64,000 nucleotides of DNA from Eledone cirrhosa (lineage: Eukaryota). The DNA lies in assembly GCA_964016885.1 (NCBI GenBank), contig OZ024758.1:2604001-2668000 (forward strand), read 5' to 3'. The notes under the pieces are model-generated. The model saw nothing but the letters and a program-made list of their open reading frames with translations, was not told the origin of the DNA and did no database searches. Shown in pieces: positions 7,950-14,308 of the stretch. Position numbers and translations under genes: made by a program. Numbering within the stretch: the first letter of the stretch is position 1; every line of letters starts with the position of its first letter.

Positions 7950-8201
7950 TACATATATGTATATATAATATATACACTATGTATCTATACATTTGTATAT
8001 ACGGACTTTCACATACAAACACAGATACACATCCACACACACACACTCACAGACACACACACATATATATATATACACATATATATATGTATATAGCAGT
8101 TGAGCAGTTGAAGTATAAGGACGTGTTTTTACTTCTCTCCCCGAGTAAGCAGCAAGTCACACAGCCACAAAACAAAACCACAAGACAAAACCAAACAAAC
8201 A

Positions 8202-8302
8202 AAAATTGACCGGTTAATACATTTTCATACATCTATATTATTATATATTTGAAAATTGACCGGTTAATTCATTTTTCATACATCTATATTATTATATATT
8301 TG
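8202..8302 (+). repeat. ~50-bp tandem duplication in LINE 5'UTR
   Basis: AAAATTGACCGGTTAAT.CATTTT(T)CATACATCTATATTATTATATATTTG twice. Confidence 0.85.
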
Positions 8303-8316
8303 AAACCACGTGTTTT

Positions 8317-8809
8317 CGAACTTGTGAGTACATTTTCCTTTAACTACAAATTATTATTATATACTTTCGTCTTTTCATTAACTTAATTAATTTCAAATAA
8401 CCAGAATATACATATATATATATATATATATATACTCATATTTATATATATACGCTTCTCACTCACACACAAGAAAAACAAAAAAACAAAAATAAATCAA
8501 AAATAAATTTAAAAAAAAATATATATATATTGAAATACTTAACTAAAACACACACACACGAACTTGTGAGTACATTTTCCTTTAACTACAAATTATTATT
8601 ATATACTTTCGTCTTTTCATTAACTTAATTAATTTCAAATAACCAGAATATACATATATATATATATATATATATACTCATATTTATATATATACGCTTC
8701 TCACTCACACACAAGAAAAACAAAAAACAAAAATAAATCAAAAATAAATTTAAAAAAAAAAAAAAAATATATATATATATTGAAATACTTAACTAAAACA
8801 CACACACAC
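8317..8809 (+). repeat. ~242-bp tandem duplication in LINE 5'UTR
   Basis: Units start CGAACTTGTGAGTACATTTTCC at 8317 and 8559 and differ essentially only in A-run and (TA) lengths. Confidence 0.92.
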
Positions 8810-8820
8810 TCAAAACTAGA

Positions 8821-9996
8821 ATGGCTAACCAGCAAAAATCCAAACAGAACTGGTCTGATAATGAAATCGACATTCTAATAAACACATGGCATTGCCTTTC
8901 CCAAACAGAAAATATAGATGCTTCATCTCTGAACGACATTGCTAAACGTACAGTTCAATTTTTGAAAACTCGATCTGAACAACAGATTCAAAATAAATTA
9001 AAGCAAATCGAAATTGCTTTTAAATTAATCAATAAACATTTGGATAAACTACGGTGTGTTTTCTCTTCGAATGCTGTCCAGCAGCAGCAACAACAACAAC
9101 AGCAGCTACAACAGCAACAGCAACAACAGCAACAACAACAACATCAACAACAGCTACAACAACAACAACAACAGCAACAACAACAACAACAACGACAACA
9201 ACAGTGTGAACCACTCCTTGATTCATCAACAATGGCCGATCTACTAAATGAAACTATTGACCCCCCAGTAGCCTCTGTCTCACAGCATGAAACGCCACAT
9301 CCTTTCTCTGACCCAGCAGTCCAATCATCACCACTGCCAACATCTCTGCCTACTACTACTACTACTACTACAACATTTTTGTCTACTGCTATGTCAAGGA
9401 ATTTACCTTCTAATACCAGAACAAGAACTCTCCCTCCCACAGTCCACAAAGGTCGTCAAATCCTACCCAAACCATCATCTACACCTCTCACAACACCCAC
9501 ACCCACATACCCACCCACTCGAAACCCCATCATTTGCCGCTACTCTCTACGCTATAGAATATGTACGGATAGTGGCTGCAAATTCACCCATTTACCTAGG
9601 ACAAAACGATCTATCCCCACAAACAGCCACCACCATAATACATACTCTAATTTAACACCAACACAACCACCAATAACTCAAACAAGGAATCCACAAATCT
9701 GCCGTTTTTCCCTGCGAGACAGATTGTGTTTAGACCGGGATTGTCCCTTTACCCATCTCCCGGGGACCCGTCGGATAAATGAAAATAAAATTAAAAATAA
9801 AAGCAAAAACAAAAACCATAACCTACATAAAAATAACCACTACCACAGTCACCAACAGTCTTCTAAACAGGAAACTTCTTCCTCTTTTTTAGCCATAATG
9901 AATCTGGCAAAAGAACTGGAAAAAAACATTCGAGCTATCACCCAGCACCACCCTCCACTATCACCCCACTGCACAAACTCCCATTGCTGCCATTAA
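8821..9996 (+). CDS. LINE ORF1 protein: Myb/SANT(trihelix)-like N-terminus, polyQ, Pro/Thr linker, two CCCH zinc fingers
   Basis: 391 aa; NWSDNEIDILINTW...RSEQQIQNKLKQI; CRYSLRYRICTDSGCKFTH and CRFSLRDRLCLDRDCPFTH both fit C-x8-C-x4-C-x3-H. Confidence 0.85.
   Translation: MANQQKSKQNWSDNEIDILINTWHCLSQTENIDASSLNDIAKRTVQFLKTRSEQQIQNKLKQIEIAFKLINKHLDKLRCVFSSNAVQQQQQQQQQLQQQQQQQQQQQHQQQLQQQQQQQQQQQQRQQQCEPLLDSSTMADLLNETIDPPVASVSQHETPHPFSDPAVQSSPLPTSLPTTTTTTTTFLSTAMSRNLPSNTRTRTLPPTVHKGRQILPKPSSTPLTTPTPTYPPTRNPIICRYSLRYRICTDSGCKFTHLPRTKRSIPTNSHHHNTYSNLTPTQPPITQTRNPQICRFSLRDRLCLDRDCPFTHLPGTRRINENKIKNKSKNKNHNLHKNNHYHSHQQSSKQETSSSFLAIMNLAKELEKNIRAITQHHPPLSPHCTNSHCCH
9885..9927 (+). promoter_or_regulatory. 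Candidate -1 ribosomal frameshift signals (T TTT TTA at 9885-9891; A AAA AAC at 9921-9927)
   Basis: Both are X XXY YYZ in ORF1 phase; the -1 frame is open from 9867 straight into ORF2. Confidence 0.55.
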
Positions 9997-12900
9997 CAAA
10001 CAAACAAATTAACAACACACCAAAACAATTAAAACCATCCACTCTCGCCTCTACATTTTTGCTTAACGCCCAAGGCATCAGCCCTTCCACCAATACTCAA
10101 AAATGGAAGATCAAATTCCTGGAGGACTGGATTGATGTCCATCCAAACCACATCCCTTTCTTCGTCCTCACTGAAACCCATCTCAGTAACCTCCACTTGG
10201 AAGCCGAGGTGAAAGTGAAAAATTTCAAAGCCATCCGTGCTGATCGCGCTGGCAGAAGAAAGGGCGGAACTGCCATTTATGTCCATAATTCTTTCTCAAC
10301 AGAGGCTATGAACATATTCACTAATGGATACTGTGAGGCAGTCACTGTATTCAGTCAAACCAACAACCTATTAGTAGTTGGGCTCTATAGGCCACCCCAA
10401 ACGCCTGTACCATGCTTCAAGGAATGCCTCAACAGCATAAAGTGTTTCATCCAAGAGTGTCACCCTGACAACATCTTAATGATGGGGGACTTCAACCTCC
10501 CCGGAGTTGACTGGTCCACAAACACCCTGCCACCAGGTTCTTCTGCCTCAACCTCTGACAGGGAAGCTGTGGAATCGCTTCTTGACTTCATGGATGATTT
10601 CTTCCTATCCCAACTAGTGCTCGAACCAACGAGGTGCCACAAAAACGTCCTAGACTTAATTTTCAGCAATCACACTGACAATATCCACAATATTGCAGTG
10701 GAGAAAACTCTACTCTCTGATCATGACATGGTTCTCTGTGATCTGAGATTCCACCGTCCAATATACAAACCCAATGTCATTTCTCCTGTCCATCCGTTTG
10801 ACGCTATGGATTTCCACAATGCAAACTGGGAAGCGATCAGTCATGATCTTGCACATGTCGACTGGTCCTTCACGCACACTCATACACCCACTAACATCAA
10901 AAAGTCCTGGCAGACATTTGTGGACACTGTTACAAACATATGTGCTAAACACACCCCATTAAGAACTATAAACAAATCTAAGAGCAGAATCCCTAGAAAT
11001 AGAAAAACACTCATCAGAAAAATTAAGAGAACGAACAAAAAAATCAACAAGCTGAAATACTGTCAGCAGCAACACATCAACTTGACTGCCATTTCATCAC
11101 TAGAGATTAAAAAACATAACCTCCAAAACAACATAATGTCCCTCATCAACAATCAGAGAAGAGCTGAAGAGGCCTGGGCCATTGAGAAGATCAAACTCAA
11201 TCCCAAAGTGTTCTTTTCATTTGCAAAAAAACACAAAATCACTGGCTCTACTGTTGGCCCTCTAATTGATGAAAATGGCACTCTTCAAGACAATGCTAAA
11301 ACCATGGGTGAGATACTGCAGAAACAATACTGCTCTGTTTTCAGCAATCCTGATATGGCCGATCTGGGCTGTATCGGCGATGTTACTCCCCATTACACCT
11401 TATCGGACATAACGTTTGGCGCCCCTGATGTCTTGGCGGCAATAAAGGAAATCAAGCATAATTCAGCAGTAGGTCCCGATAGGTTCCCTGCTTGTGTCTT
11501 GAAGGCGTGTCAACACCAACTTGCTTCTCCTCTTGCCAATCTGTGGCGGAACTCACTGGATGCTGGATATGTGCCAGAAAACCTTCTATCCCAGTCTGTT
11601 GTCCCAGTTTTCAAAAAGGGAAACAAATCCCTTGCCGTGAATTACCGTCCAATCTCACTCACCTCTCATATCATTAAGGTATTTGAGCGAGTGGTGAGAT
11701 CGCGAATGACCCACTTCCTTGAGAGTAACAATATGCTGAACTCCAACCAGCATGGATTCCGTAATGGAAGGGATTGCCTGACGCAACTACTGCATCACTT
11801 TGATGACATTTTGAGAGCCTTGGGAGAGGGTTCCAACACTGATGTTATCTACCTTGATTTCAGCAAGGCCTTTGACAGGGTTGATCATAACATTCTACTG
11901 AGAAAGCTGTCCAATATTGGTGTCACTGGAAAGCTGCTGCAGTGGATCAAGAGCTTCCTGTCAAACAGAACCCAACATGTTGTAGTTGAGGTAGTCAAAT
12001 CAAGCCCAGCCAAAGTCAGTAGTGGAGTCCCACAAGGCACTGTGTTGGGCCCACTTCTCTTCATCATCTATATTAATGACATCACTGACATCATCAAACA
12101 CAGCAACATTAAAATTTTCGCTGATGATTCCAAGCTCCAAAAGGTCATCAATGGCGTGGATGACCGGATAAGCCTTCAGTCAGACCTACTGGCTGTTACC
12201 CAATGGGCAGAAAAGAACAACATGCTACTGAACGAAGACAAATTCGAACTGATCCACTTTGGAAAAGAGGATGCTCTGAAACTCCCGTACTCCCTTCCCT
12301 CCGGGGAAACTCTCGTGGCATCTAACAACATCAGAGACTTGGGAGTAACCGTGGACAGCAACATAAGCTGGACCACGCATATAAGCAGCAAAGTTGACAT
12401 GGCCCGCAGAATGTGTTCCTGGATCCTCAGAACCTTCCAGTCGAGAGATTCCCGCACCATTATCCTTCTCTTCTCTACTTTCGCCCGACCACACCTTGAA
12501 TACTGTTGTCCACTGTGGTCTCCCCACACGAAACAAAGTATCATGAAACTTGAAGCTCCTCAAAGGGCAATCACGAAAAAGATAGATGGCATGTCAGACC
12601 TTGACTACTGGGGTCGATTGGAAAACCTGAAACTTTACTCACTCCAACGTCGCCGTGAGCGTTATATTATCTGCATGATGTGGAAAATGTTCCATCATCA
12701 CTGCCCAAATGATGTTGGCATCGCCTTCAAGATACACCCAAGGCTTGGGCCCCGTGCTATCCGTCCCATTCAAAAATCTAAATCGCAACTCATAACAACA
12801 ATACGGCACAATTATTTCACCTCAATCGGCCCTGCTCTCTTCAACATCACACCAGGACACGTCAAAACAGAAACTGACCACACAAAATTCAAGAAGTCTT

Positions 12901-13004
12901 TGGACAAATTCCTCCAAGTAATCCCGGACAAACCACCCACACCCGGATATGTCTCCGCAAACAGTAATTCTCTTCTCGAATGGGCCATGGTGCCCAAATC
13001 CTGA
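9984..13004 (+). CDS. LINE ORF2: apurinic endonuclease + reverse transcriptase
   Basis: APE motifs LLNAQG, LTETHL, YRPP, GDFNLP, LDLIF, SDHDMV; RT motifs YRPISLTS, QHGF, YLDFSKAFDRV, GVPQGTVLGPLLF, FADD, DLGV; the track start is TTG and the frame is open from 9867. Confidence 0.96.
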   Translation: MLPLTNKQINNTPKQLKPSTLASTFLLNAQGISPSTNTQKWKIKFLEDWIDVHPNHIPFFVLTETHLSNLHLEAEVKVKNFKAIRADRAGRRKGGTAIYVHNSFSTEAMNIFTNGYCEAVTVFSQTNNLLVVGLYRPPQTPVPCFKECLNSIKCFIQECHPDNILMMGDFNLPGVDWSTNTLPPGSSASTSDREAVESLLDFMDDFFLSQLVLEPTRCHKNVLDLIFSNHTDNIHNIAVEKTLLSDHDMVLCDLRFHRPIYKPNVISPVHPFDAMDFHNANWEAISHDLAHVDWSFTHTHTPTNIKKSWQTFVDTVTNICAKHTPLRTINKSKSRIPRNRKTLIRKIKRTNKKINKLKYCQQQHINLTAISSLEIKKHNLQNNIMSLINNQRRAEEAWAIEKIKLNPKVFFSFAKKHKITGSTVGPLIDENGTLQDNAKTMGEILQKQYCSVFSNPDMADLGCIGDVTPHYTLSDITFGAPDVLAAIKEIKHNSAVGPDRFPACVLKACQHQLASPLANLWRNSLDAGYVPENLLSQSVVPVFKKGNKSLAVNYRPISLTSHIIKVFERVVRSRMTHFLESNNMLNSNQHGFRNGRDCLTQLLHHFDDILRALGEGSNTDVIYLDFSKAFDRVDHNILLRKLSNIGVTGKLLQWIKSFLSNRTQHVVVEVVKSSPAKVSSGVPQGTVLGPLLFIIYINDITDIIKHSNIKIFADDSKLQKVINGVDDRISLQSDLLAVTQWAEKNNMLLNEDKFELIHFGKEDALKLPYSLPSGETLVASNNIRDLGVTVDSNISWTTHISSKVDMARRMCSWILRTFQSRDSRTIILLFSTFARPHLEYCCPLWSPHTKQSIMKLEAPQRAITKKIDGMSDLDYWGRLENLKLYSLQRRRERYIICMMWKMFHHHCPNDVGIAFKIHPRLGPRAIRPIQKSKSQLITTIRHNYFTSIGPALFNITPGHVKTETDHTKFKKSLDKFLQVIPDKPPTPGYVSANSNSLLEWAMVPKS

Positions 13005-13071
13005 ATTGAAAGACTTCGCCAGGTGGTGCTATTAAGTTAGACATGGCCTGGGCCAATACTGGCCAAAACAT

Positions 13072-13101
13072 TTCAAAGTTATTCAAAGTTATTCAAAGTT
13101 A
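13072..13101 (+). repeat. LINE 3' terminal repeat (TTCAAAGTTA)3
   Basis: Three exact 10-mers after the short 3'UTR; short tandem tails are typical of CR1/L2 clades. Confidence 0.9.
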
Positions 13102-13222
13102 TATACATATATACATATATATATATATGTATGTATATATATATACATATATATACATATATATATATATATACATATATATACATATATATATATATAT
13201 ACATATATATATAAATATATAC

Positions 13223-13271
<49 letters not shown>

Positions 13272-13290
13272 CATATATATACATATATAC

Positions 13291-13327
<37 letters not shown>

Positions 13328-14308
13328 GATACACACATATATATATATATATATATAGATACACACATATATATATATATATATATAGATACACACATAT
13401 ATATATATACACACACACACATGCAAATATATATATATACATATATATTGATATATTATTGTATATTGATACACGTACCTATAAAATGCAATTGTAAACA
13501 TATTCTTACAAATAAGGGGAGGGAAGAGAAGACAGTAAGATGGCGAAGGTGGTAGGGGAAGATGAATATAAGAGATGAGCATAGTAAAAATGCCGAGAGA
13601 TTTCCTATCATAATAAACAGCAGATTATATTCTCATCTCCTATTACTGGTATATTCATGAAGTTCATTAGGCATCTTGATCGATATTAATATTTTAAGCA
13701 TTCAATCCTTCCCAAAGTATTTCTCTAGCTCTATTCAATTTTCATTTGATTTCTAAATTTCTGGTTGTGTTATTTTTTCTGTATATCTAAATATGGAAGA
13801 GAAATTCTTAAATGAAACATTATATTTGGGAAGTAGATTAAATGTATATATCAGCTTTAATTTATCTAGTTTCTATGCCATATTCTTCGCCCATGTTACT
13901 TTCCTTTTACACAGAATTCTTGTTTCTGCAATTATACATATTTCTAAGTAATATCCAGTTTTGTTTTTGTTACAAAGTAGTGAAAATCGAGAGTAAGAAT
14001 TGTGGTTTTGTAGTTGTTGTTACTGTTGTTGTCACCTTTGTGATTTCTGTTGTTGTTGTTCCACTACTAGGTCAGCAGTAATTGACAAATTCTAGGAACG
14101 ATCAAAGTTGTTCTAGACCTAACCAACCCGTCATTGATTTGTGACCCTGGAATTCACCTTCTTTTAACAAGAGACTGCATTGTAGAATTTGGTGTTCCTG
14201 TCTTAAATGGGTTTGATTCACAGATCTAGCTTATTCAACTCCCATAGACAATTAATACTATTAAGAAAAGCATGAACATTTCAACTTTTCTTTTTCCAGT
14301 ACTTGTGT

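Follow-up and report, generated by a model that had tools for sequence, protein, structure and literature searches.

The locus described here raises the question of how the second open reading frame (ORF2) of a long interspersed nuclear element (LINE) is translated when no AUG precedes its first endonuclease motifs. The element is located in a stretch of 64,000 nucleotides from Eledone cirrhosa (GenBank assembly GCA_964016885.1, contig OZ024758.1, positions 2,604,001 to 2,668,000 of the forward strand), the whole of which is called the window here. It occupies approximately positions 8100–13102 of the plus strand, flanked by TA microsatellites, and is the single intact LINE of the window, where no second copy was detected by tblastn. 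What is understood of LINE ORF2 translation comes mainly from L1 and SART1, in which, according to PMC2881922, a separate ORF2 protein is made by reinitiation. For the element in the window we infer, with a probability of about 0.85, that programmed −1 ribosomal frameshifting at the heptamer U_UUU_UUA (9885–9891) gives an ORF1–ORF2 fusion; the shift, its rate and its product are all predictions.

The ORF1–ORF2 junction

The ORF1 frame extends from 8797 to 9996, with its ATG at 8821, and encodes a product of 391 amino acids. The ORF2 frame, which is −1 relative to ORF1, opens at 9867 after the TAA triplet at 9864–9866 and ends with the TGA at 13004; the two frames overlap by 130 nucleotides. 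Its 1,045 codons encode an APE endonuclease and a reverse transcriptase, and its earliest in-frame ATG (10308) lies inside the endonuclease, 3′ of both the first APE motif, LLNAQG (10059–10076), and TETHL. Only two canonical heptamers are in phase within ORF1: T_TTT_TTA at 9885–9891, 18 nucleotides past the opening of the −1 frame, and A_AAA_AAC at 9921–9927. This geometry had been set out in the original prediction, and the frames, their overlap, the location of the first AUG and the positions and phase of both heptamers were all reproduced. The equation of the first heptamer with the slippery sequence of human immunodeficiency virus type 1 (HIV-1) also holds, with U_UUU_UUA being given for HIV in PMC5009743. 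The junction has the form of a canonical −1 signal, namely an X_XXY_YYZ heptamer in the phase of the upstream frame, with the −1 frame closed six codons upstream by the aforementioned TAA and open downstream into the endonuclease and reverse transcriptase.

In the proposed mechanism, most ribosomes would read ORF1 through to its stop at 9996, producing the 391-residue ORF1 protein. A minority would slip back by one base on the Phe-Leu codons at 9885–9891 and then translate a low-complexity linker followed by the endonuclease and reverse transcriptase. The predicted fusion contains 1,394 amino acids, 357 of ORF1 followed by a further 1,037; it would retain the ORF1 zinc fingers and lose the final 34 ORF1 residues. 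The stimulus required may be no more than basal slippage or a signal that is weak or acts at long range.

Considered on its own, the copy in the window does not exclude chance. Canonical heptamers in the phase of ORF2 itself number six in 1,045 codons, equivalent to about 0.25 expected per 43 codons, which by hand arithmetic gives probabilities of about 0.2 for at least one and about 0.03 for at least two. This single-copy evidence is weak, and the case rests on conservation.

In the genome of E. cirrhosa, 40 of 40 scored matches, taken from 1,488 candidates, are 100% identical over 9600–10400. An exact 37-base pattern spanning the first heptamer has 572 matches there, compared with five for the same pattern with one additional T. 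These numbers refute an indel private to the copy in the window. Of 12 long-frame copies retrieved, one is fused by an extra T (L065, with a frame of 1,274 codons) and 11 are truncated at the 5′ end or broken upstream; most long open frames belong to copies with a 5′ truncation and continue into flanking sequence. An older, diverged subfamily, around 78–87% identical and first revealed by contigs of unknown kind aligned to the window, retains the layout. At every position of the two heptamers its majority base is that of the window; among 18 decayed copies, nine retain an intact first heptamer and 11 an intact second one. Two patterns from loose ends of contigs, searched in the same genome, had no match. 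An AUG-less ORF2 in the −1 frame is thus the design of a young two-gene LINE family, of which the window holds an intact copy. Two further young LINE families of this genome that belong to the same lineage, C (L253–L281) and D (L282–L292), with an ORF2 identity of 37–39%, both contain T_TTT_TTA.

Conservation of the heptamer among related LINEs

Relatives were picked by APE patterns alone, blind to the junction. From 23 of the 64 parts of the metagenome contig collection came 437 confirmed stretches, of which the best 80 were used, and genome contigs added 30, giving 110 loci; among viral contigs no relatives were found. Sixteen of the 110 cluster with the window element, with a support of 100 in a quick tree and of 99 in a FastTree phylogeny to which L136 and families C and D were added, at APE identities of 31–51%. 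Leaving out L126, whose contig begins 3′ of the site, there are 15 metagenome relatives with a junction, and 12 of them contain T_TTT_TTA in ORF1 phase, 0–36 nucleotides past the opening of the −1 frame. L136 carries T_TTT_TTG, and L118 carries G_GAT_TTT, which as G_GAU_UUU is the shift heptamer of pea enation mosaic virus (PMC5009743). When families C and D are included and the window is not counted, T_TTT_TTA is present in 14 of 17 elements and a slippery heptamer in 16 of 17. The retention of heptamer, phase and −1 offset in 14 of these 17 lends support to the ORF1–ORF2 fusion by frameshifting that had been proposed for this locus, which withstands all the sequence-level refuting conditions set out with the original prediction.

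TTTTTTA is found in phase at none of the 16,958 other codon positions of 15 elements. Given the encoded amino acids and each element's own codon usage, the choice of T-TTT-TTA has a probability of 0.008–0.055 per element; multiplied over 13 elements, this gives 1e-22 if these are independent, and around 1e-13 when eight deep lineages are counted (hand arithmetic). ORF1 homologs retain x-F-L close to their carboxy-terminus, and the residue following Phe-Leu differs among the elements (E, A, G or V), so the DNA word is not fixed by protein constraint. Judged from these comparisons, the nucleotide word is conserved beyond what the protein needs. Between the heptamer and the ORF1 stop, the −1 frame contains no stops in 1,420 codons, compared with 275 in 2,967 upstream and 75 in 1,375 in the +1 frame. 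It closes 0–13 codons 5′ of the heptamer in 15 of 15 elements, and 26 codons 5′ of it in family D. This openness is partly there by construction, because the heptamer was sought inside an open frame, but the length of the stretch and its end point are not. Before APE motif I, 12 of the 17 elements with a slippery site, window included, are AUG-less. Taken together, it is likely that retrovirus-type −1 frameshifting is used by a deep lineage of CR1-type LINEs.

The notion of a tandem pair of sites was not upheld. A_AAA_AAC is kept only in the window family and its older subfamily; none of the 14 metagenome relatives in which a site was identified has it 3′ of that site, and P0049, the closest ORF1 homolog, has KEIQRS where ORF1 of the window has KELEKN. 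A_AAA_AAC is not the conserved signal and is at most a secondary, family-specific site, which may add some shifting in the window family.

More distant loci were also inspected. L139, L152, L164, L165, L169, L175, L179, L185, L191 and L198 combine a −1 overlap with A_AAA_AAC near the frame opening, and L158, L163, L167, L181 and L182 combine it with G_GAA_AAC (by eye), while other distant loci have offsets of 0 or +1. Shifting by −1 may be widespread in the wider LINE group. P0041, a distant ORF2 relative, contains a 2A-like motif, DIHPNPGP, before the APE domain; this motif is absent from the window element. P0026 and P0027, with long amino-terminal extensions on APE, were considered as natural fusions and set aside as evidence, because P0027 has internal deletions of the kind that gene prediction produces.

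Stimulatory signals and alternative explanations

Several observations weigh against frameshifting at the first heptamer. No 3′ stimulator was detected at the normal spacing of 5–9 nucleotides in the window element (z from 0.23 to −0.82), and over 15 elements the mean z is only −1.1, with four of the 15 below −2. L132 has no slippery site, its ORF1 frame is closed nearby and in-frame AUGs are present, and five of the 17 elements have an AUG before motif I, at unrelated positions. Related lineages are not independent. A damaged heptamer is common to the copy pair L230/L231 of the window family and to L299/L306 and L311/L314 of family D; copies without the site have therefore been duplicated, by trans mobilisation or by segmental duplication. 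Finally, the base next after TTTTTTA is G in 15 of 15 elements, also spelling a splice acceptor.

The shift site of HIV-1 has a stem-loop. In the window element, region 9892–9975 has no stable fold (z 0.28) and contains no stem-loop adjoining the shift site to display pairing bases, in line with the original prediction, which had seen no clear pseudoknot after the first site. The short GCCA/TGGC stem that it had described does exist, but begins one nucleotide past the heptamer and does not outperform shuffled sequences (z 0.38 and 0.23, or about 0.3); it was rejected as a stimulator. All folds were computed as pseudoknot-free structures. In five of 14 relatives (L122, L125, L127, L130 and L136), a hairpin with z below −2 is predicted in the first 45 nucleotides after the heptamer. 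Between 5 and 70 nucleotides past the heptamer, L127 and L136 have a strong predicted hairpin (z −4.5 and −2.9, respectively), the GCGAA loop of which matches a downstream TTCGC, a possible pseudoknot by eye.

A candidate long-range stimulator arm, AGCACCACC (9944–9952), is exactly complementary over 9 bp to GGTGGTGCT in the 3′ untranslated region (UTR; 13022–13030), where family D has GGCGGTGC at the equivalent place. This match beats all 42 ORF2 tiles and is equalled by two of 42 other queries. In L123, a 12-bp helix between the junction and the 3′ end is better than both controls; the equivalent pairing is modest in family D, L119 and L131, and nothing was found in family C and L120. Over seven elements, with L121 left out as its contig stops 5′ of the 3′ UTR, the combined p is 0.001 by the tile control, which is liberal given the G-rich 3′ ends, and 0.036 by the query control. 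A gapped duplex scan proved too permissive to be informative. The older subfamily shows no compensatory change: all 18 copies have A at position 9945, and the C of the 3′ arm is kept in five of six aligned old 3′ ends, leaving 7 bp. The 3′ arm is, moreover, partly paired in the predicted fold of the 3′ UTR. The pairing may act as a long-range stimulator; support for it is modest, making it a lead, not a result. That an entire invertebrate CR1-type lineage makes a Gag-Pol-like fusion by a −1 shift stimulated via its own 3′ UTR, 3 kb away, is a doubtful proposition at present. If long-range stimulation were true, the enzyme would be made from full-length RNAs only, and reverse transcriptase binding or copying the 3′ end would turn off further enzyme synthesis. 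Such a traffic-control design is described for plant RNA viruses in PMC5009743.

Termination-reinitiation or a non-AUG start (CUG at 9969, UUG at 9984 or CUG at 9987) would yield a separate ORF2 protein, as is supported for L1 and SART1, by reinitiation or coupling (PMC2881922). The near-cognate codons are located 9–27 nucleotides 5′ of the ORF1 stop and are kept in most copies of the older subfamily. What such initiation, already named in the original prediction as the competing route, leaves unexplained is the fixed heptamer, its phase and a −1 frame that is kept open over 37–204 codons, as far back as the heptamer. The ORF1 stop coincides with APE motif I itself in seven relatives, and the window element has no stop-start AUG, nor an AUG at or after the ORF1 stop yielding a complete ORF2 protein, the first one (10308) being inside APE. 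A separate ORF2 protein made in this way is improbable. The invariant G could alternatively belong to a 3′ splice site, TTTTTTAG, with a spliced RNA joining an upstream start to the ORF2 frame. Positions 9875–9892 are acceptor-like, with a pyrimidine tract and AG, and the 5′ UTR contains donor-like GTAAGC and GTGAGT. Spliced RNA should be copied back into the genome, and splicing is disfavoured in that no spliced genomic copy was found: patterns for copies that diverge immediately 5′ of 9893 matched five, of which four carry point mutations and one is truncated at the 5′ end, compared with 572 unspliced copies. A search of ORF1 revealed no donor-like sequence in the required phase. Furthermore, several relatives have purines and AG just 5′ of the T-run, the six T positions are never C in the 15 TTTTTTA elements, L118 is without a YAG at the site and L136 has its AG in a different phase. 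We give splicing at this acceptor little credence, in an analysis that extended neither to exons ending in TTNG nor to other acceptors.

A_AAA_AAC, one of the shiftiest heptamers with mammalian ribosomes (PMC5009743), could be the main shift site, or translation could start at the ORF1-frame AUG at 9898–9900, six nucleotides past the first heptamer, and shift at A_AAA_AAC to give an ORF2 protein free of ORF1. This AUG, which like the acceptor-like tract at 9875–9892 does not figure in the original prediction, has been retained by all 18 older copies, and the arm at 9944–9952 sits 16 nucleotides 3′ of A_AAA_AAC. The heptamer is, however, missing from the relatives at this place, as illustrated by the aforementioned KEIQRS of P0049, and internal initiation at 9898 has no evident route; both versions are very improbable. 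An indel in the window copy, or slippage of RNA polymerase on the T-run producing fused transcripts, would be in keeping with the five copies with an extra T, including the fused frame of L065. The six T residues in 572 copies refute the indel form, and slipped RNAs as the source of ORF2 protein predict many new copies with an extra base, whereas L065 is the only fused one among the 12 long-frame copies. The probability left for this explanation is close to negligible.

Programmed −1 frameshifting at 9885–9891, the preferred reading, would if true amount to a retrovirus-like strategy, with a fixed ratio of ORF1 protein to ORF1–ORF2 protein and a reverse transcriptase tethered to the ORF1 zinc fingers. 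Annotation would change, in that AUG-less, seemingly frameshifted ORF2s in such elements would count as intact. The site consists of seven defined bases in hundreds of identical copies, which makes a direct reporter test possible.

Other features and comparison with known systems

All features are on the plus strand. The 5′ UTR (8100–8820) has an approximate 5′ boundary, the longest copies aligning from around 8100, and contains a 242-bp tandem duplication (8317–8809, from tandem repeat analysis). Its donor-like GTAAGC and GTGAGT sequences are at 8145, 8324 and 8566, with GTGAGT inside the duplication. ORF1 (8821–9996) contains poly-Gln and two C-x8-C-x4-C-x3-H fingers, followed by Phe-Leu and a helix-like tail; its amino-terminus is weakly Myb/SANT-like (Pfam PF13837, E 0.0022, below the Pfam cut-off). 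In P0049 and family D, a Met is also present at most two codons from Phe-Leu. The end of ORF1 is a Cys/His cluster in both family D (SHQCCC) and the window (SHCCH), and family D has many intact ORF2 frames of 1,076 codons. The reverse transcriptase domain of the window element is formed by residues 585–828 (11619–12350; Pfam PF00078, E 1.4e-30). At the 3′ end, a hairpin with a 5-bp stem and a 4-nucleotide loop is predicted at 13051–13064, within a region (13005–13075) with a predicted fold z of −2.39, and a tail of 3.1 10-bp units follows (13072–13102, from tandem repeat analysis). In run X1, the summed contig depth is around 40 times higher over 9670–9940 than over ORF2; these contigs are of unknown kind and their depth cannot rank regions.

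A dinucleotide microsatellite, mostly (TA)n, is located at most 50 nucleotides from the 5′ end in 34 of 36 distinct 5′-truncated copies (L009–L072, L229). Families C and D also end in TA repeats, and the window copy lies between TA microsatellites (8000–8097 and 13103–13440). Together this may suggest a strong microsatellite target preference.

Our literature search, which did not extend to most subscription papers and Repbase reports, revealed no account of a conserved slippery site in CR1-type LINEs; those sources may include discussion of overlaps in T1, Q, Tad and R1 elements. In a review of frameshifting, the matching passage on non-LTR (long terminal repeat) elements concerns HeT-A and TART only (PMC5009743), and for Paramecium LINEs, +1 shifting or readthrough has been suggested (PMC5405496). 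The nearest labelled reverse transcriptase found is that of O.sinensis_156_LINE, for which the supplements of PMC10294476 give the label Jockey/CR1. Long reverse transcriptase motifs are common to it and ORF2, as matched by eye, and our trees were without named references. With the CR1 clade (Jockey superfamily), the window element shares APE and reverse transcriptase, a 3′ hairpin, a short-repeat tail and an upstream ORF1; it differs in having an ORF1 with CCCH-type fingers and a weak Myb-like domain. The Proto2 clade was rejected, the reverse transcriptase motifs of Proto2-1_BF and Proto2-1_CS1 being plainly different by eye.

Like L1 and SART1, the element would have a bicistronic LINE RNA in which ORF2 depends on ORF1 translation, but these two reinitiate or couple and make a separate ORF2 protein (PMC2881922), whereas in the window element the frames overlap and the AUG is within APE. 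The original statement that LINEs use reinitiation or coupling holds for L1 and SART1; for TRE5-A and TRE3-A of Dictyostelium, two-ORF elements with APE and reverse transcriptase, a figure legend in PMC5911963 states that a −1 shift is needed for ORF2. The latter belong to another lineage and target tRNA genes, and the likeness is one of statement, not of shift-site sequence. In barley yellow dwarf virus (BYDV), red clover necrotic mosaic virus (RCNMV) and pea enation mosaic virus 2 (PEMV2), the 3′ end contains the complement of a short sequence located beyond the shift site, at a distance of 4 kb in BYDV and about 3.1 kb here (PMC5009743). In contrast to these viruses, the window element is without a stable adjacent stem-loop, its 3′ arm is partly paired and there is no compensatory change. 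From HIV-1 gag-pol the element differs in being non-LTR, in having APE and neither protease nor integrase, in having no normally spaced stem-loop and in that its shift is predicted from the sequence. What the two have in common is U_UUU_UUA (PMC5009743), with G as the next base, located where a nucleic-acid-binding frame overlaps a −1 reverse transcriptase frame.

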